NCBI GenBank assembly: GCA_963702025.1
Contig: OY969699.1
Coordinates: 448,001-512,000, forward strand
Direction: 5' to 3'
Source of the DNA: an uncultured bacterium
GTDB taxonomy: Bacteria > Babelota > Babeliae > Babelales > Vermiphilaceae
Length of the DNA stretch: 64,000 nucleotides
Both the position numbers and the translations under genes were made by a program. The notes beneath the pieces are model-generated. The model made no database searches. It had not been told where the DNA came from and worked only from the letters and a program-made list of their open reading frames with translations. Positions 30,526 through 42,809 of the stretch are shown piece after piece. Each line of letters starts with the position of its first letter. Position 1 is the first letter of the stretch.

Positions 30526-31096
30526 TTTTTTTTCGTTTTTCTAATGATGCATTTACAATGATAGTTTTTTGAGGATCATGTAGCCCATTCGTTGTCAATT
30601 TTTCAATCTCTTGGGTGCTAATACTGTATTCAGAGCAGGTAGGGATCAGTGAAATCAAATCGGCAGGCAGTAAGTTAAAATAGGTGCTTTTATCTTTAAA
30701 GAGAGTTTCAACAATCACCGTGTCAAGAAGCGGGCCATTTTTTGTGTGATTCAGTAATAAATTTAATATTTGCGTATTCTTGCTTAAAGATGCAGAAAAC
30801 AACGGATCAGAACCGTATCGGAATTTTAACATCACGTTAATTTTTGGCTGGCTCAAGAGGAGGGTGACCATTGGTATATCTTGATTGGTAACGGCAACTG
30901 ATAAGACGGTATTTTGACCATCTCGCGCATTAACATCGGCCCCTTGCTTGAGAAGTTGTTCAGCCTGCTCTACATTTTTTGTTTTTACTGCAGTAACAAA
31001 TTGCGTATCAAGTTCTTGCGGAACTTGCATGGCATAGGTTGTTGCAATCAACGAGCTGATTGCGCAGAATGTGATTATTGTTTTTATATTTTTCAT
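30503..31096 (-). CDS. Secreted ankyrin protein with F-box-like motif
   Basis: TYA|MQVP; LLKQGADVN; TYFNLLPADLISLI. Confidence 0.85.
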   Translation of the reverse strand: MKNIKTIITFCAISSLIATTYAMQVPQELDTQFVTAVKTKNVEQAEQLLKQGADVNARDGQNTVLSVAVTNQDIPMVTLLLSQPKINVMLKFRYGSDPLFSASLSKNTQILNLLLNHTKNGPLLDTVIVETLFKDKSTYFNLLPADLISLIPTCSEYSISTQEIEKLTTNGLHDPQKTIIVNASLEKRKKNGAHDEK

Positions 31097-31106
31097 CGTT
31101 TATCCA

Positions 31107-32039
31107 TTATGAAATTGAACAATTGTTTTGATTTTCATCGTAATCTTCCGGAACTGCTATCATAGTTTTGCCATGCATAATCAATTTCTTTTTCTTTTCT
31201 TGCTCAGCAATGGGCAATTCTTGCTTTTTTCTTTTTTGTAATGCAGCATTAAACAATGCTTTTATTTCGGGGTCCATGTTTTTTTGAGTTGTCATAATTT
31301 CTTGTATCTGCTCATTGCTAATACTGTATCCGAGATCGATCATATAGAGCGACAATAAAGAAATTAAATCTCCTGGAAGCACTGAAAGATAATTTGTTGA
31401 ATCGGAGTGTGAAATTTGAAGTGCCAGCATTTCTTTTCCTTTTTCTCCTTGCATATATTTTTTGAGCAGTGAAATGAGATCTGCCGGAAGCAATGAAAAA
31501 TAACTATCCTTTTTATTATTAGTTTGCAAATCTTTAATCAATTCTTGCTTTAGAATTGCTACCGGGCTTTGGTGATTAAGAAGTAATTCTATGATTTGTT
31601 TGAATTTAAAGTAACTAGCAATTTCTAATGGGGTAAGTCGATCACTACCACCTTGCAGATTTATTAAGATTTCAGGATGGGAAAGTAATAATTGCACCAT
31701 GTCGATATTATTAGAATTCACGGCAACGTGCAAAGCGTTCGATGTGCCTATCGCTGCATTTGGATGAATCTCTTTAATTTCAAGTAAAGCTCTTGCGGCC
31801 CAAGTGTTGTTTTTATTTACTGCATAAACAAGAGGAGTTTGAAATGATAATCGATTAAAACAAGAGTTTATGCGCGGGTTATTAGTAAAAATTTTTTTTA
31901 TTTCTTTAGTGTTTCCTTCATTCAGTGCCTGCAGAAATTGCTCTGCTTCTTGATCAGGATTTTCTGGTTTTTCCATAGCAAATAAGCACGAGGTCAGAAA
32001 ACAGAGGATTAAAGGGGTTAAAAATTGCATATTTTTCAT
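31107..32039 (-). CDS. Secreted ankyrin protein with two F-box-like motifs and CaaX-like end (CSIS)
   Basis: LFA|MEKP; TPLVYA/NALHVA/TPLEIA; YFSLLPADLISLL and YLSVLPGDLISLL. Confidence 0.88.
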   Translation of the reverse strand: MKNMQFLTPLILCFLTSCLFAMEKPENPDQEAEQFLQALNEGNTKEIKKIFTNNPRINSCFNRLSFQTPLVYAVNKNNTWAARALLEIKEIHPNAAIGTSNALHVAVNSNNIDMVQLLLSHPEILINLQGGSDRLTPLEIASYFKFKQIIELLLNHQSPVAILKQELIKDLQTNNKKDSYFSLLPADLISLLKKYMQGEKGKEMLALQISHSDSTNYLSVLPGDLISLLSLYMIDLGYSISNEQIQEIMTTQKNMDPEIKALFNAALQKRKKQELPIAEQEKKKKLIMHGKTMIAVPEDYDENQNNCSIS

Positions 32040-32184
32040 ATAAAAACTCCATTTTGTTTAAAGTAATACTATTCTATCTCTTATTTTATATAAAAAATTC
32101 AAATTGTCAATAATGAATTAGGGTTAAAATTGGGAGGGGTTTAAAGGTGTTTTTGGTTCAAAAGTGGTGATTTTTACCCCTGCG

Positions 32185-32764
32185 GGGTAGCAGCAAACGT
32201 GGGAATGTTTTCGCAAAATTATTTTAAACTGGAGGGATTCTTGTGAACCCCTCCAGACCACCGCACACTAAAGGGGGAGCCCTTTAGAATCCCCTATGCG
32301 CTAAACTCATCAACTCATCTCCCTTCGGGAGCTGCGTCGGTTCATACATATAGCGCAATCAGATCTAAACGTTTTATACATTAACTGTACGTAGAGCCCG
32401 CAACGATCCCCTCGACTTCGCTCGGGACTAAAGGCAAGCCGGGGCGCGAAAGCGCCCGAGCGGGCTCAGTTATTTTTTCTCTTGATCTCAATTGTGCTAA
32501 CTCAGGAAGTTTTTTAATAATGTTCTTTTGCTAGGGGTTTGGGGTCCCCCTCCAGCAAAAGCTATTTCCTTAGCATTCAAATGGTAGGGGTTAAATTCCA
32601 ACCTAGGCGGTACCGAGCTCGAATAGGCGAAGCCTATGAGTGGCGAGAGGTTGCCATGTCCGCTGAAAGCGGCATGTGCAGCCGTGATGAGCGCCGTCGG
32701 GATTCCTAAGGTGCCCCTTAGGTGAATGGGGGTGTGGGGGTATTTTCAAGAATACCACCACGTT
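32185..32764. repeat. Structured non-coding element, copy 1 (module A 32185-32480, module B about 32510-32764)
   Basis: GC-rich multi-hairpin sequence nearly identical to 33957-34572. Confidence 0.9.
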
Positions 32765-32905
32765 TTATTGCTGTACAAGAGGGATTTCGTCTTCAACTGC
32801 AGTAATAAATTGTTTATCAAGTTCTTGCGGAATTTGCATGGCATAGGTTGTTGCAATCAATGAGCTGATTGCGCAAAGTGTGATTATTGTTTTTATATTT
32901 TTCAT
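32765..32905 (-). pseudogene. Truncated duplicate of the 5' end of gene 30503-31096
   Basis: MKNIKTIITLCAISSLIATTYAMQIPQELDKQFITAVEDEIPLVQQ*; stop codon abuts the structured element. Confidence 0.85.
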
Positions 32906-32916
32906 AGTTTTCTCCA

Positions 32917-33810
32917 TTATGAAATTGAACAGTTTTGTTCATTATTTTTCTTATTGTTTTTTGTTACTTTAATCGTATGTTTTCCAGTTACAATTAATTC
33001 CGTGTCCTCTTCTTGTAATGCCCTCAGCGGTGATCGTTTTGTCAATTCATTCTTAATAACGGCTTTTATCGATGGATTAATAGTTCGATCCTTAAGTATT
33101 TCTAATGCCGCTTCATCTGTAACACTCTTGCAATGAAGATACGGGGCAAGCATGTCAAAAAGATCTTTATGCAATAATGCAAAGTATGTTTTGTCTGCTT
33201 GCAGTTCAGCAAGCAGTTTTTTTGATTTTTGCATTGTGGCGGATGAATGATCGCAATGATTCATAAATAATTGTATTAATGCCTCTTTATTTTTTACTGG
33301 AAAAAGTTCATTTTCATCCTTGCCACATGCTTTTTGGAATGCCGTAGCTCTCTTATAGCAATCATCATCCGCATATATCTTGTAGCAATGCTCCGCGTTA
33401 ACGTCCACGGCGGGGTGATCAAGCAGAAGCTTTACTATTTCTATGTTCTCAACTCGTGTCGCAGTCTCACCAAATGGTATAATCCGGAGCCAGTTGTTGG
33501 CAATTGCGCGATGAAGTGGTGTGCCATAAGAATCTTTTAAGTTTACATCAATGTGGGGATGAGCAAGTAAAAGTTTTATGATTTCTATGTTTTTGTTATA
33601 CACTGCCCAATGGATCGGGGTCCACTTGTCAACATCTTGTATGTTCACATTTATATCTTTATTTTGGAGCAGCGTGGCAACCTGCGCTGCATTATCTTGT
33701 TGTGCTGCTTGCAACAATTGTTGATTGAGATGCTCTATGGGCATTTCCATGCCCTGTGTTGTGCCGCCAAAGGCGAGCGCACAAGCGATCATTAGTATTT
33801 TACTTTTCAT
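32917..33810 (-). CDS. Secreted ankyrin protein with degenerate F-box-like motif and CSIS end
   Basis: TQG|MEMP; WTPIHWA, GTPLHRA; TYFALLHKDLFDML; QNCSIS*. Confidence 0.88.
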   Translation of the reverse strand: MKSKILMIACALAFGGTTQGMEMPIEHLNQQLLQAAQQDNAAQVATLLQNKDINVNIQDVDKWTPIHWAVYNKNIEIIKLLLAHPHIDVNLKDSYGTPLHRAIANNWLRIIPFGETATRVENIEIVKLLLDHPAVDVNAEHCYKIYADDDCYKRATAFQKACGKDENELFPVKNKEALIQLFMNHCDHSSATMQKSKKLLAELQADKTYFALLHKDLFDMLAPYLHCKSVTDEAALEILKDRTINPSIKAVIKNELTKRSPLRALQEEDTELIVTGKHTIKVTKNNKKNNEQNCSIS

Positions 33811-33956
33811 ATAAAACTCCATTTTGGGCTTAAAATAACATTGTTCTATCTCTTATTTTATATAGAAAGTGCAAATTGTCAATAATGAAAGAGGGTTAAA
33901 ATTGGGGGGGTTAAAGGTGTTTTTGGAATTAAAAGAGGGTGATTTTCCGCCTTGCA

Positions 33957-34572
33957 GGGTAGCAGCAAACGTGGGAATGTTTTCGCAAAATTATTTTAAA
34001 CTGGAGGGATTCTTGTGAACCCCTCCAGACCACCGCACACTAAAGGGGGAGCCCTTTAGAATCCCCTATGCGCTAAACTCATCAACTCATCTCCCTTCGG
34101 GAGCTGCGTCGGTTCATACATATAGCGCAATCAGATCTAAACGTTTTATACATTAACTGTACGTAGAGCCCGCAACGATCCCCTCGACTTCGCTCGGGAC
34201 TAAAGGCAAGCCGGGGCGCGAAAGCGCCCGAGCGGGCTCAGTTATTTTTTCTTGAAAACATTCTGTTTCTAACTTAGAAACTTTTTCATGAATATATAGA
34301 AAATAGATTGCCACACATTTTTTTAATAATGTTCTTTTGCTAGGGGTTTGGGGTCCCCTCCAGCAAAAGCTATTTCCTTAGCATTCAAATGGTAGGGGTT
34401 AAATTCCAACCTAGGCGGTACCGAGCTCGAATAGGCGAAGCCTATGAGTGGCGAGAGGTTGTCATGTCCGCTGAAAGCGGCATGTGCAGCCGTGATGAGC
34501 GCCGTCGGGATTCCTAAGATGCCCCTTAGGTGAATGGGGGTGTGGGGGTATTTTCAAGAATACCACCACGTT
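33957..34572. repeat. Structured non-coding element, copy 2 (module A 33957-34252, module B about 34319-34572)
   Basis: Module A identical by eye to copy 1; module B has 3 differences; the spacer differs in length. Confidence 0.9.
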
Positions 34573-34600
34573 GCTGGCCCTCGGCAGTAAAAAGTAACTG

Positions 34601-35368
34601 CTAGCCACAGAAAGTAATGTTTTCAAAGTGTATAACTTTGGGCATACTCTTCTCTTTTTCTTCAATGGTTTTGGCCAGCCATTTTTGTGCGTCCGGTTCC
34701 ATGGGAAGATAGGTGAGCCGTTTTAACAAGAGTAAAAGATATGCCGGTTCGGGAGGAAATGACATTTTTCCAAATTCAAAAGCACCCGGTTCAGTATCTA
34801 TAAAATAGGCAATGCCTTGCGCGGTGTTCACAATGTTTTTATCATGAACATCAAAATATCCTGTTTTTTGGATAATAATAACCAGTTGCTGTATCTGTTG
34901 TAAAGAAAAAGGAGCATTGGCAACAATAATTTTTGGTTCGACCGCATAGTCATTTGCTTGCTGATCAATATATGCTTTTTTTATCGGTATTTTTACTGCA
35001 TCGCAATGATATTCATCGGCGCATTGCTGAATCGCCAAAGCACCAATGAGGCGCGCTGCGCCATGCTTTTTAATAATATGTTCGGGAAGGGCAGAAGATT
35101 CATAGATATTTTTTGCCAGTTTTTTTACGGTGCCGTTATCAATGTTTTTTTGTAGAGCTTCTTTGTTAAAAAGATCATCAAGTGTTACAGCAACTTCCGG
35201 GCTCACGGTATGATTTTTTACTATTTCTTCCAACGAAATTTGGTCACTAAAAGTTGCATACCAGTATTTGCCATCATATTCTTGCTCCATTGCCTGGCTT
35301 TGGCCGGCAAAGAGAATGGCTAAGGATGCCAGCGAAATTTTGAGTATACTTTTAATTATTCTAACCAT
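34601..35368 (-). CDS. Secreted kinase-like protein, paralog 1
   Basis: SQA|MEQE; IIKK..RLIGA..KTGYFDVHDKNIV..YFIDTE; exact start uncertain (35368-35401). Confidence 0.6.
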   Translation of the reverse strand: MVRIIKSILKISLASLAILFAGQSQAMEQEYDGKYWYATFSDQISLEEIVKNHTVSPEVAVTLDDLFNKEALQKNIDNGTVKKLAKNIYESSALPEHIIKKHGAARLIGALAIQQCADEYHCDAVKIPIKKAYIDQQANDYAVEPKIIVANAPFSLQQIQQLVIIIQKTGYFDVHDKNIVNTAQGIAYFIDTEPGAFEFGKMSFPPEPAYLLLLLKRLTYLPMEPDAQKWLAKTIEEKEKSMPKVIHFENITFCG

Positions 35369-35385
35369 TGTAGCATGCATATTTT

Positions 35386-36202
35386 TTAAATAATCATGCA
35401 ATTTAATGAACTATTCTGAGTTTTTTCTGTTGATGGTGACGGTTCAATTCTTGTTGATAATTGTGATTGTAATAATTTTTGTTGCCACTTGTTGATTTTT
35501 TTATCGAGCCATGAACATGCGTCTACCGTTAAAGAGCCATCGAGTCTTCTTAAAATGGTTAATGCATTTATAAGACTTTTTAGATGAAAAAATTTTGGAG
35601 GAAAAATTGGATTTTCAGAAAATGATCTTTGCTCAGTATCAATGATATAGGCAATGCCATCTGCAGTATTTAAAATATTTTTTACGGGACCAATCGGTGT
35701 ATCCGGTTTTTATGGTTATTTTATAAAATTGTTTTACTTGTATTTTTGAAAATGGTTCATCTACTGATTCAATTTTAGGAACAATGGTATACCAATTCCC
35801 CGAAGCATCTTGATATACTTTTTTAATCGATGTTTTTACTGCGTCGTAATGATTCTCATCTGCGCATTGTTGAATTGCTAAAGATCCAATAACACGATCG
35901 AAACCTATTTTTATGATAGTGTTTGCAGGTGTTAAAAGTTCATAAATTCCTCTTGGGGCTAATTGTTTAAGTTTGCCGGCTAAAAGATCTTGTTTATATG
36001 TTTCATTAATTTCTTTTTCAACTTCCGGACTTACTTTATGATTCTTTATTATCTCATCCAAAGGCATTTGGTTGCTAAAATTGGCATACCAATATTTGCC
36101 CTTTAGCTCCATTGCGTGGCTTTGGCCGGCACAGAGAATGGCGAATAATGCCAGCGAAATTTTGAGCATATTTTTAAATAGTTTAGACATTGCAATCTCC
36201 AT
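35386..36202 (-). pseudogene. Secreted kinase-like protein, paralog 2, +1 frameshift in a homopolymer; restored C-terminus CMII
   Basis: T6 run at 35678-35683; removing one base restores DWSRKNILNTADGIAYIIDTE and reads through to the stop at 35386. Confidence 0.75.
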
Positions 36203-36206
36203 TTAT

Positions 36207-36977
36207 TTATCTTTTTAACGTTGTATATATTAATAAAACAGCGGGCACTATTAAGCTAAGAATCTGAGTAGTATTTTTGAATAGCGCGGGATATTTTTTG
36301 CCTGGATTTTCTATGTTAAGAACATGAAGTATTTTTGATCCGTCGCAAATTTGATTATGCAATCCAAAAAGCTGTTCGATATCATAATATGCACATAAAA
36401 TAATCATTACTTGAATGAAAGGATTTTGATCCTTATTTAACAATGGTCTTTGAAAGCCATTTAGTAGGATATTTGAAAAAGCATTATTATTTGATGAGAT
36501 ATATTCATTGAGAATATTATTTGTTTTTAATAAGCAATAGCAGCTTGCTAATCCAAAAAGTGGCCCCATTAGAAGCGTAAGCACAAGCCGTGATGCGTAA
36601 TTTTTATCATATGTATATTTATTAATGCTGCCAATTTGAGTGGAAAAGCATGTGTCGCCTTTCATTGGAAAAGCCAAAGGATTCTTCCATGGCGCTTTTA
36701 GAGGAATATTGATTTTAATATCTTTTACATTTAATAAAAGTTTCGCGGTCAATGCGTGGCCACATTCATGGCTTAATGTACTCAAATAAGCGGTTGCGTA
36801 GATCTGTGCATAAGTTAAGCCGCTTTTGGCTAAAAAACCAAGAGCTTTTGATAGGGCTGTTGATTCTTTTTGCATTGCATAGCTTGGCATACCTATATTG
36901 CTCATCAAAAGGAGAAGCAAAGTCAAATACGGAACTTTTTGTAATTTTTTAATTATTTTAGACATTGCACTCTTCAT
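36207..36977 (-). CDS. Secreted/membrane HExxH metallopeptidase (M50-like)
   Basis: LSHECGH, hydrophobic LMGPLFG segment, downstream CDG; SYA|MQKE. Confidence 0.6.
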   Translation of the reverse strand: MKSAMSKIIKKLQKVPYLTLLLLLMSNIGMPSYAMQKESTALSKALGFLAKSGLTYAQIYATAYLSTLSHECGHALTAKLLLNVKDIKINIPLKAPWKNPLAFPMKGDTCFSTQIGSINKYTYDKNYASRLVLTLLMGPLFGLASCYCLLKTNNILNEYISSNNNAFSNILLNGFQRPLLNKDQNPFIQVMIILCAYYDIEQLFGLHNQICDGSKILHVLNIENPGKKYPALFKNTTQILSLIVPAVLLIYTTLKR

Positions 36978-37736
36978 TTATAATTTTGCCAGCATAAGTT
37001 TTTTCTCTTTAATTCTTTGCTCGAGCCATTTTCTTGCATCATTTTCCATAGACAGCCTAGACAGTCTCTTGAGATTGAATGAATGCGTACATGATGCAGT
37101 TTTGGTTTCCTTTGGATCAACTGTACAATAGTCAAAAGAACGTGGTTCGGTATCGAGGATGTAGGCAATTCTTTGTACCGAATTGACAATGTTTTCATTA
37201 TGACCATCGGCATAGCCAGTTTTTTCAATAACAATACAGAGCTGTTTGATTTGTTTAAGTGAAAACGGATCTGAGACGATAGAAACTTTTGGTTCGACCA
37301 CATACCCGATTCCTTGTTCATCAATGTATGCTTTTTTTATCGGTGTTTTTACTGCATCGCAATTAAATTCAGCTGCGCATTGCTGGATTGCTAAGGCGCC
37401 AATGATTCTATCAGCGCCATATTTAATGACAGTATTAGGAAGTCTGTAAGATTCGTATACCTTATTGTTATCGTACAACAATCTTTTCAAGCTGCCGTTT
37501 GCAATATTTTTTGTATAATTAGTTCCAGCAAAAAGATCATTGATTATCATTTCAACTTCCAGACTCACTTTATATTTTTTTAATATCTCTTCAAACGGCA
37601 TCTGTTTTCTAAAATTTGTATACCAGTATTTGCCAGCGCATTCTTGTTCCATTGGCTGGCTTTGGCCGGCAAAGAGAATGGCTAATGATGCCAGCGAAAT
37701 TAGTGCATTTTTAACTATTGGCATTGAAATCCTCAT
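36978..37736 (-). CDS. Secreted kinase-like protein, paralog 3
   Basis: SQP|MEQE; VIKYG..RIIGA..KTGYADGHNENIV..YILDTE. Confidence 0.6.
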   Translation of the reverse strand: MRISMPIVKNALISLASLAILFAGQSQPMEQECAGKYWYTNFRKQMPFEEILKKYKVSLEVEMIINDLFAGTNYTKNIANGSLKRLLYDNNKVYESYRLPNTVIKYGADRIIGALAIQQCAAEFNCDAVKTPIKKAYIDEQGIGYVVEPKVSIVSDPFSLKQIKQLCIVIEKTGYADGHNENIVNSVQRIAYILDTEPRSFDYCTVDPKETKTASCTHSFNLKRLSRLSMENDARKWLEQRIKEKKLMLAKL

Positions 37737-37822: not shown

Positions 37823-38611
37823 TTAATAGGCTGATGAACCTATAACGTGTTCAATCTTATCATGTGGCTCACTTGGTGCATCAGGGGCGGCCAGCAGATT
37901 TTGCTGGCCAAGAGGGATTTCGTCTTCAGTTTCAGAGGTTTGCAGGGATTCCAGGCGGGCAAGATAGGTGTCTCGATGAATAATCAAGTGTTGGCCGCTT
38001 TCGCGAATAATGCGTTTATGAGGGGGCGTGCTATACCCCTTGTGGGAGGCAAGCAAATAACCGGGAAATAGGGCGTCCATTCTGCGCATCATCGCATCGC
38101 GCGTTACTTTGGCCACAATTGAGGCGGCTGCAATAGTGCTTGATCGGCGCTCGCCAAAGGGAAAATAATGGACCGGAATATCGTTAAATGAGGTGTCTGC
38201 CAGGTTCAAGGGCATAGCATCGGTAATGATGGCGCTTGGCTTTTGAGGGGCGGTTGCCAGCAGGTGAACCAGTGCCTTTTTCATAGCGATTAGGGTGGCG
38301 TGCCAGACATTGCGAGAATCGATGGTGCGATGATGGACTATACCTATGCTGTATTGGCAGTTTTTCTGAATCCAGGTAAAGGCTTTAATCCGTTCCTCAG
38401 GGGTCATGAGCTTGGAATCTTTGAGCAATCGATGGGTTTTGCCGGGAGGCAAAATCACCGCAGCAGTGACAACAGGGCCTGCCAAACAGCCCCTGCCCAC
38501 TTCATCAAGCCCACAGATAAGTTGATTCTGCGCCCAGGCTTGTTCTTCAAAATAATTCTTATTGAAACGTTGGCGAACCTTAGTGATCCTGCCAGTTGTT
38601 TCTGAAATCAT
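37823..38611 (-). CDS. rnhB: Ribonuclease HII
   Basis: GLDEVGRGCLAGPV, DSK, IAAASIVAKVTRD, HKGY. Confidence 0.96.
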   Translation of the reverse strand: MISETTGRITKVRQRFNKNYFEEQAWAQNQLICGLDEVGRGCLAGPVVTAAVILPPGKTHRLLKDSKLMTPEERIKAFTWIQKNCQYSIGIVHHRTIDSRNVWHATLIAMKKALVHLLATAPQKPSAIITDAMPLNLADTSFNDIPVHYFPFGERRSSTIAAASIVAKVTRDAMMRRMDALFPGYLLASHKGYSTPPHKRIIRESGQHLIIHRDTYLARLESLQTSETEDEIPLGQQNLLAAPDAPSEPHDKIEHVIGSSAY

Positions 38612-38711: not shown

Positions 38712-39389
38712 ATGTCATCAAGATCTACTGAACTACGCGTAAAAGAGCTTTTACGAGAAAAAGGGTGGACAACCAAAACGCTTGCTGAAAAAACAGGCAT
38801 GTCGGAAAGTTATCTAACCCATATTAAAAATGGTACTCGTCGTTGGAACGAAGATTCGTTAAGGAAACTTGCCAATGCATTTGAAATCAGTCCAATCGAT
38901 CTGTTTGCGCAACGTCGCAAAAGAACCGATAACATTGATAGCAATGTGAGTATGCCAGAAAAATCGGATGTCGAACTTAAGGTGCAAGTGGTGCCAGTAG
39001 TTGGCGACATTCCGTCAAACCCATCACCTTATAATAACCAATTAATGCAAATTACCACCGGTTATAAAGATATTTTTATCCCGGTTCTCAATACCACCGA
39101 TAATTCAATGTTCTCATTGTGCATTGATCACAACTTGATGGCCCCAACCTTTGTGAAGGGCGATTGTTTGATCATATCCCCAGAAACATGGGCACGCTCA
39201 GGTGATATTGCTGCTGTTGAATATGGCAACGATACCCCAATTCGTGGCATTGTTCAGGTTACCTACACTGATGATTTTATCGTTATTGAATCGGTAAACC
39301 ATAAATCTCCGCCAATAGCATTGGTTCGTGGCAAGGATCATTTTAGAATCATTGGTCGCGTTATTGAGCGCCATCAAAGACTCGCCTAA
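38712..39389 (+). CDS. XRE-family HTH regulator with S24 (LexA/CI-like) C-terminal domain
   Basis: HTH LLREKGWTTKTLAEKTGMSESYLTHI; VPVVG..MAPTFVKGD..GDIA..RIIGRVI. Confidence 0.85.
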   Translation: MSSRSTELRVKELLREKGWTTKTLAEKTGMSESYLTHIKNGTRRWNEDSLRKLANAFEISPIDLFAQRRKRTDNIDSNVSMPEKSDVELKVQVVPVVGDIPSNPSPYNNQLMQITTGYKDIFIPVLNTTDNSMFSLCIDHNLMAPTFVKGDCLIISPETWARSGDIAAVEYGNDTPIRGIVQVTYTDDFIVIESVNHKSPPIALVRGKDHFRIIGRVIERHQRLA

Positions 39390-42355: not shown

Positions 42356-42809
42356 CCGTTCGCCTCGATGGAGGCTCCGAAGGAGCCGAATGGAGAGGTA
42401 CAAAAAAGCTATGTTGCAATTTTATGTTTATATTCTTAAGTGTAGTGATGGCTCGTATTATACTGGTCATACCGATGATTTAGAAAAACGAATTGCAGAG
42501 CATAATGCAGGAACTTATATGTGTTATACCGTAACGAGGTTGCCAGTTTTTCTTGTATTTGTACAAGAATTTGCCTCAAGAGCTGAGGCATTAGAAGCGG
42601 AAAGAAAAATAAAAAAATGGGGAAAGAGAAAAAAAGATGCTTTGGTATATAAAGGGTGGGATGGAATCATTGCATTACGCAAAAGAAAATGAACCTCTCC
42701 ATTCGCTCTTTTCTCTCGCTGCGCTCGCTCAAGAGCTCCATCGAGGCGAACGGGGGAATGGCATATTCGTTTACGCAAGAAAATTTTGCGCGCTGCATTG
42801 CGAAAATAA
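42356..42809 (+). mobile_element. GIY-YIG cassette: inverted REP-like arms (42356-42398, 42694-42753) plus a second copy of the typA 3' end (42762-42809)
   Basis: 18-bp and 12-bp perfect inverted matches between the arms; 44/48-nt direct repeat of 42224-42271. Confidence 0.7.
42411..42692 (+). CDS. Small GIY-YIG nuclease (UPF0213/YhbQ-like)
   Basis: FYVYILKCSDGSYYTGHTDDLEKRIAEHN..ALEAERKIKKW. Confidence 0.92.
   Translation: MLQFYVYILKCSDGSYYTGHTDDLEKRIAEHNAGTYMCYTVTRLPVFLVFVQEFASRAEALEAERKIKKWGKRKKDALVYKGWDGIIALRKRK

Follow-up and report, generated by a model that had tools for sequence, protein, structure and literature searches.

Two-armed repeats with common hairpin ends in a Babelota genome: a possible gene-less mobile element folding as single-stranded DNA

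What kind of element is a structured, non-coding sequence of about 600 bp that stands twice beside ankyrin-repeat genes, and how might it have come to be there? The question is raised by positions 32,185 to 34,572 of a 64,000-nucleotide stretch, hereafter the window, from an uncultured member of the Vermiphilaceae (Babelota; GenBank assembly GCA_963702025.1, contig OY969699.1, positions 448,001 to 512,000), for which an initial annotation had proposed either a novel pair of large non-coding RNAs (ncRNAs) or a non-autonomous, mobile or recombinogenic element folding as single-stranded DNA (ssDNA). We find that the two copies belong to a dispersed family of elements built from two inverted arms, and we lean, with moderate confidence, towards the view that these are gene-less, non-autonomous mobile elements which fold as ssDNA and recombine at their common hairpin ends.

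The two copies occupy 32175..32764 (arm A, spacer and arm B, including an outer small hairpin at 32175-32189) and 33947..34593. As had been annotated, module A is repeated letter for letter over 296 bp (32185-32480 and 33957-34252), module B shows 3 differences between 32510-32764 and 34319-34572, the spacer between them varies in length (29 bp in copy 1 vs 66 bp in copy 2), the copies are GC-rich (50-51% GC vs 38% for the 64-kb window), and all ten of the named hairpin motifs occur twice. Folded as DNA, copy 2 has z = -7.4 with none of 20 shuffles equally good, and when folded as RNA the scores are z = -2.3 for arm B and z = -3.1 for the minus strand of arm A. The two copies are unlikely to be an assembly artefact, since the spacers and flanks differ and since sequencing run X1, which may represent the source sample itself, covers the copy-1-specific stretches 32390-32529 and 32547-32774 with 0 differences; no piece of X1 reaches across both copies. 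The outer ends of arm A and of reverse-complemented arm B are indeed homologous with compensatory changes; the pseudoknot suggested between a loop ATTC and a downstream GAAT is not conserved, being formable in 10 of 120 ends where 7.1 are expected.

Each arm is 150-300 bp long and runs from an AT-rich centre to a conserved terminus, which read outward consists of a GGGATT(C) tag (GGGATT in 58 of 120 ends, variants in the rest), hairpin 2, a linker of 9-11 nt with GGGGT at its end, hairpin 1 (its loop being, for example, GCGA, GCAA or ACAA), a small outer hairpin and sequence rich in A. In copy 1, the arm A terminus (32208..32296, minus strand, with a GGGATTC tag, hairpin 2 at 32268-32287, the linker and hairpin 1 at 32229-32256) folds on the minus, outward strand and is identified by 63.3 bits with model R1 and by covariation, while the body of arm A together with the AT-rich centre spans 32297..32509 (minus). 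Arm B has a multi-stem body (32510..32695, plus), whose C-GAA-G and T-GAA-A loops become GTA or GCA in other copies, and a terminus of tag, hairpin 2, GGGGGT linker and hairpin 1 (32696..32764, plus; 72.9 bits with R1) that is without the outer small hairpin. The A and B termini of copy 2 lie at 33980-34068 (minus) and 34504-34593 (plus), the latter with its outer small hairpin. The structure is borne out by covariation: in 23 ends aligned with MAFFT, for which the structure was set by hand, double changes occur in 14 of 21 pairs and 88.9% of the cells pair vs 75.9% when shuffled, and among 118 distinct ends fitted by model, a procedure leaning towards the structure, 95.4% pair and all 20 pairs have double changes. 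The arm bodies likewise keep covarying stems, with thin RNAalifold support for A.

We examined 59 two-armed copies (60 assembled from the loci read, minus one locus fetched twice), which measure 328-771 bp with a median of 488 and have no recurring open reading frame (ORF) among them; 7 of the 59 hold an ATG frame of 80-157 codons. Six arm types recur among congeners, A in 21 arms (counted among the fetched loci, genus and metagenomes), B in 11, C in 7, D in 10, E in 6 and F in 5, and they pair in at least nine ways; most arms of other genera were left unassigned to a type, and some genera have inverted arms of the same type. The BOX elements of Streptococcus pneumoniae and the NIMEs of Neisseria are likewise made of modular subunits in varying orders, NIMEs being associated with variable genes, but BOX subunits stand in tandem, unlike the present back-to-back arms with their common terminus. 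Small palindromic repeats of the CGTC/Ssn type lie within 16 of the 59 copies (background 4.9%) and look like passengers; one such repeat, from this separate family, is inserted in arm A at 32408..32435 (plus) and is missing from the copy at genome position 858 kb. We also note, at 32490-32510 and 34262-34280, a near-palindrome of the TTCTAACTTAGAA type and a TAAACGTTTTAT(A/C)CA motif, which are conserved across species in A-type arms and are candidates for protein-binding sites.

The element is not merely twice present, as had been assumed: BLAST and the covariance model place nine loci in the genome (1.6 Mb, 39% GC), eight of them two-armed and one a solo arm, giving 17 complete ends and 1 remnant. 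The pairings are A+B four times, A+C three times and B+C once, with one C lacking a complete partner. Eight of the nine loci have a neighbouring locus within 10 kb, as did 5 of 200,000 random placements, and local duplication alone could be the source of this clustering. The loci bracket ankyrin, WD40-like and other genes that look variable by eye, and the link to ankyrin genes turns out to be local, other copies adjoining thrS, trxB/rpmH, umuC and others. One of these, at genome 858-861 kb, stands beside umuC/umuD-like genes. Among 50 scored sites, 44 are codirectional or convergent, that is, mostly downstream of genes. Beyond this genome, counts that include it give R1 matches in 35 of 80 family genomes (E <= 0.001) and in 32 of 150 genomes sampled across the phylum (E <= 1e-4). 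A pattern scan of GTDB gave 104 stretches, of which 80 were fetched, mostly from Clostridia-type Bacillota and furthermore from Chlamydiae, Desulfovibrionaceae, Acetobacteraceae and Babeliales; in the collection scan, Ca. Babeliales records matched the ends best. Five genomes from the GTDB scan hold 9-55 ends each (E <= 0.01), in elements ranging from short doublets to non-coding mosaics of 1.2-1.4 kb. Mosaics of that length with the same hairpin grammar are found at L252-L255 of genome G260, which has 43 ends and no Y1 transposase match. Twelve metagenome stretches yielded eight further two-armed copies, viral scans returned 0, 4, 0, 0 and 3 stretches, one viral contig pair carries a two-armed copy, and BLAST of plasmids and phages gave no useful match.

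Whether the arms act as DNA or as RNA can be approached through their hairpin loops, which were counted in 116 arms from 58 elements, leaving out copy 2 of the window and the locus fetched twice. Among hairpins with 3-nt loops, GNA accounts for 105 of 306 on the outward strand vs 11 of 306 on the inward strand, and C-GNA-G, with 50 loops, reaches 1.71/kb vs 0.04/kb in the first 400 kb of the genome, an enrichment of about 40x. UNCG makes up 1 of 245 tetraloops, and the ratio of G.T to A.C is 174:56. An earlier set of 100 arms had 80 GNA loops where shuffles gave 7.8 +/- 2.2, and each of the four bases occurred in the middle position; the 16S rRNA of the same genome, a small control, has GNA in 0 of 4 triloops, and 4 GNRA and 3 UNCG among 13 tetraloops. 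Loops of the d(GNA) type are unusually stable in DNA, most so with C-G closing (PMC3201870). Since GNA triloops are enriched about tenfold outward and UNCG is nearly absent, we infer that the arms function as ssDNA and that RNA is less likely; and since the folding signature is on the outward strands, each DNA strand has one structured arm at its 3' side.

Signs of rearrangement come from contigs of three runs from peat and permafrost, whose ankyrin gene is about 90% identical. In these runs (X5, X6 and X7) the left flank of copy 2 continues into a B end of opposite strand, the joint having 7 letters in common at the foot of hairpin 1, and in X5 and X7 the right flank of copy 2 is joined to an A end. 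By these sequences, the arms at the copy-2 site stand in the opposite order in related strains, for which an independent insertion in opposite orientation is as possible as an inversion. X7 moreover skips 31098-32909, that is, the first ankyrin gene and copy 1, with which X6 agrees by 8 letters only; a further joint, from 32913 to 30907, was set aside as a likely repeat-mapping effect. The gap between trxB and rpmH, empty in the source genome, is occupied at three other loci (L076, L135 and L147) by D+E copies that share one orientation and have altered ends, so copies can also persist. Several termini have an older terminus directly outside them, cut at or near the hairpin-1 loop; a regular expression for such nesting flagged 6 of 120 ends, three being clear remnants. 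In copy 1 the remnant, half of a hairpin 1 cut at its loop, lies at 32195..32218 (minus), outside the present A end, and it has equivalents at 33967-33990 in copy 2 and at genome position 1216 kb. The mobile or recombinogenic option of the initial annotation is supported by the dispersion of the family, by sites that are empty or occupied, by arm order, by arm shuffling and by strand-specific GNA triloops.

Copies with a transposase, HUH or reverse transcriptase (RT) gene in place of the spacer were looked for and not found. Long end-to-end pairs were explained by insertion of IS3 and a group II intron into an element, by two separate elements with host genes between them, by ordinary host genes, or by non-coding mosaics of greater length. 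In genome G017 an IS3-family element lies inside copies at L067 10876-14773, L068 5109-9200 and L069 1572-3714, twice along with the RT gene of a group II intron. Clustering the proteins of loci L036-L185 gave housekeeping neighbours and no recurring transposase. On three Clostridia-type contigs (L145, L171, L179) an end stands beside a helix-turn-helix (HTH) gene and a large serine recombinase, possibly an integrative element. In the source genome, RT, TnpB and IS110 are absent, a search for Y2 gave none, with a control that likewise gave no signal, and two tyrosine and four serine recombinases are present, none adjoining an element.

A text search for 12-mers of the terminus brought up the report on the RRS of Escherichia coli, 222-bp repeats that cause lagging-strand gaps if the lagging template is their G-rich strand (Pham et al. 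2024, bioRxiv 10.1101/2023.10.01.560376 = PMC11194060), and which are described there with a G-quadruplex (G4) motif, GGGGGTGCAGGGGGCGGCGG. Gap formation at RRS needs the replisome alone, and reports of bacterial sequence elements that trigger replication gaps are limited to two, RRS among them (PMC13308219); the TRIP1 element, whose copy number varies between zero and five, is a mediator of rearrangements (Li et al. 2024, PMC10888264). The arrangement at the RRS 3' end is like the linker and hairpin 1 of the present element: a linker GGGGGT is followed by a GCAGGGGG stem with GCGA in its loop, so that the G4 motif is in sequence the linker plus one side of a 12-bp stem, and this end is scored by both our models on the G4 strand. 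With R1 the match is weak (E 0.0035 and 0.0073 in 10 kb) and below genome-wide detection, strict filters giving nothing in the whole E. coli chromosome. R2, a model from 120 non-enterobacterial ends that was applied to 57 kb, gives 21-27 bits for each of three RRS copies (E from 2.2e-6 to 1.6e-4 in those 57 kb), the next non-RRS match having 10.6 bits; the RRS reverse strand reaches 15-16 bits, which means that any GC-rich stem would earn part of the score, and the three copies are close relatives and so amount to about one observation. As for the 3' G-rich motif GGGGGTGCAGGGGG of the active strand, the exact 12-mer GGGGTGCAGGGG from the RRS G4 motif is present in 12 of 116 ends, and the window's own four ends have variants. 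Both elements are GC-rich, non-coding, structured repeats of variable copy number; on our reading they also share a strand-specific action as ssDNA and a role as rearrangement substrates. RRS lacks the GGATTC-YAAGG hairpin 2, however, arms A-F have no blastn or profile match to the 222-bp RRS body (best E 0.44), and RRS is a single arm at a few fixed loci, whereas the Babelota-type elements are two-armed and modular. Furthermore, RRS has been described as an enterobacterial G-quadruplex element, whereas in the present ends the G-run forms one strand of a stem that covaries; a G4 pattern of four G3 runs fits 4 of 116 ends, and RRS itself fails that pattern. Judged on sequence, the family is possibly a relative of RRS, and then at most a distant one. 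In a 4.9-Mb Escherichia record filed as a plasmid (NZ_CP134663.1) we counted 10 RRS-like places, and the copy read there (L301 1501-1722) has compensatory stem changes relative to K-12.

On the reading we prefer, an arm would fold once its strand is exposed as lagging-strand template, and with two opposed arms one would be exposed whichever direction the fork arrives from. Such a fold would block synthesis in the manner of RRS in E. coli, so that a gap is left; a hairpin-specific ssDNA nuclease might nick hairpin 1 in trans; and host recombinational repair would then copy arms to AT-rich intergenic sites, or swap or invert them, while repair at the gaps could help the exchange of adjoining variable genes. 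An Ssn-type GIY-YIG enzyme is our best guess for the nuclease, though a doubtful one. Such enzymes act with NTS/SRM (CGTC-type) repeats, which are ssDNA hairpin repeats as in the element (PMC11893778); the element ends differ from Ssn repeats in sequence. The genome has seven small GIY-YIG genes, most of them flanked by CGTC/Ssn-type repeats, and R1 has 0 matches in these seven loci; the one in the window (42390..42692, plus), flanked by its own short inverted repeats, is a candidate trans-acting ssDNA nuclease.

Several observations weigh against this reading. No mobilising enzyme or autonomous copy turned up, and target duplications are at the shuffled level (9 of 58 vs 8.2, with boundaries set by the model, so that short ones could escape). 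The joints come from short metagenome contigs of 85% likeness, none of which spans the element; GNRA tetraloops are enriched too (33 of 245), and the elements are related, so the loop counts are non-independent and inflated. Two-armed copies agree with the lagging-template rule by symmetry, but for solo arms the tests disagree: these arms lie on the G-rich strand by GC skew in 21 of 58 and 14 of 21 cases (short flanks) and, in one Chlamydiales genome, in 16 of 21 (p 0.027) or 14 of 21 (p 0.19). Finally, copy number is low, at 2-17 ends per genome in the phylum, and some sites are retained across species, so a host function fits as well. Such a function is the core of an alternative we hold to be unlikely, namely that these are domesticated, RRS-like gap elements: host signals that make ssDNA gaps, serving topology relief or as recombination hot spots in variable effector-gene clusters, and that need no dedicated enzyme, since they would spread solely through gene conversion and local duplication. 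The fit of the RRS end to the model, the ends sharing GGGGTGCAGGGG with it, gaps formed by the replisome alone, a site kept across species, pairs bracketing variable genes and the lack of a found enzyme would all agree with this, but 45 of 80 family genomes are without a match, the variable sites, nested remnants and shuffled arms look selfish, and RRS has neither the hairpin-2 signature nor a body like A-F; the pattern of four G3 runs fits only 4 of 116 ends.

The notion that the arms are a divergently transcribed pair of structured ncRNAs, one per arm with the terminal hairpins at their ends, appears improbable. Strand-specific folding and covariation do fit RNA, the arms beat shuffles when folded as RNA, the multi-stem structure and unpaired motifs are kept across species, and GNRA loops are enriched. 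This option of the initial annotation is disfavoured by the dominance of GNA with all four N and the near-absence of UNCG, the reverse of the 16S control, and by arms that are interchangeable and truncated at variable inner positions. Furthermore, the spacer has no promoter-like and the element ends no terminator-like site, the ends run into A-rich and not U-rich sequence, and in Rfam the window has nothing at the gathering score and only chance matches up to E 10, 20 other loci adding one tRNA and two sub-threshold matches; a resemblance to the FMN riboswitch or the twister ribozyme was dropped, as it had no Rfam match. We consider it very improbable that the family is a classical MITE (a miniature transposable element with inverted repeats), a REPIN or a TIR repeat moved by a known transposase encoded elsewhere (DDE, RAYT/TIRYT Y1 or IS91 Y2). 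That notion draws on the two inverted ends, which resemble each other above chance (13 of 58 elements vs 4.4 expected), the same-type inverted arms of some genera, the DDE-like ORFs seen by eye in the source genome, and the TIR repeats of TIRYT, which have a GGGGWSAS motif and can be double palindromes (PMC3733652). It is weakened by the missing target duplication and GTAG tag, and by the distribution of Y1, of which there is none in the source genome, in 5 of 5 congeners searched, in two distant genomes with 15 and 43 ends, or between ends in any locus read, nor is there an end near the 30 best Y1 loci, which are mostly IS200-like, weaker RAYT/TIRYT matches lying outside that set. REPINs and BIMEs (RAYT/TnpA-REP) are, like the present elements, intergenic non-coding inverted doublets or mosaics of hairpins and presumed ssDNA substrates (PMC6006769 and PMC3733652), but REP palindromes have 20-40 bp where these arms are multi-stem domains of 150-300 bp, the GTAG/GTGG (GT[AG]G) foot and, in the carrier genus sample, a Y1 gene are lacking, and REPINs number hundreds per genome. 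From TIR families the element may differ in its linker GGGGT(G/C)CAG, which has one base more than GGGGWSAS, though overlap with one of those families is conceivable. It falls outside the definitions of REP, MITE, Ssn and Rfam families and likely behaves as a non-autonomous ssDNA element of the REPIN/BIME type.

A broader speculation, rather unlikely in our estimate, is that RRS/TRIP1 is a domesticated single arm of a widespread superfamily of selfish, ssDNA-folding elements, whose Babelota form would have two interchangeable arms, stall the lagging strand either way and, lacking a transposase of its own, use the gap for self-copying, arm swaps and exchange of neighbouring genes, ankyrin genes among them. 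There is as yet no explanation for where RRS came from. With hundreds of natural variants of an RRS-like end, the family allows direct tests of how common gap-forming elements are and of the nature of the RRS block, be it a G-quadruplex or the covarying stem seen here. It also adds a large, modular and apparently enzyme-less class of repeats to reduced intracellular genomes, at the edges of variable ankyrin-gene blocks, and should the RRS link fail, it is still an undescribed REPIN/BIME-like family; no description of it was found in the literature searched, from which most subscription papers were outside the scope.

As to the neighbouring genes, the ankyrin-repeat gene beside copy 1 (31107..32039, minus) has a promoter-like TTGACA-16-TAAAAT at 32110-32083, outside the element, and the one between the copies (32917..33822, minus) has a promoter-like site at 33882-33855. 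The strong divergence claimed for their coding sequences holds, at 25-29% protein identity; that they are a young duplicate does not, as they are no closer to each other than to other paralogues of the cluster, and since flanks about 90% identical adjoin such dissimilar proteins, divergence of a young duplicate is not the explanation. That identity covers the promoter region and the 3' end of the genes (about 130 bp each), the last codons being identical, and the two genes look, from their sequences, like exchangeable cassettes. The junction after copy 1 (32765..32910) begins with 28 nt like 37901-37928, followed by a partial copy of 30987-31101 at 93% identity. The 28 nt (32765-32795, 26 identical) match a site inside an RNase HII gene 5 kb away and have short overlaps on both sides, which looks like a template-switch scar. 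Downstream of copy 2, 34601-37736 holds four paralogous ORFs in tandem, whose starts resemble signal peptides and which match nothing in Pfam, and 38712-39389 a gene with HTH and peptidase S24 domains (LexA/phage-repressor-like). The GC skew of the genome switches sign at about 350, 750, 870 and 1100 kb, a pattern that suggests an inversion or misjoin at 750-870 kb.

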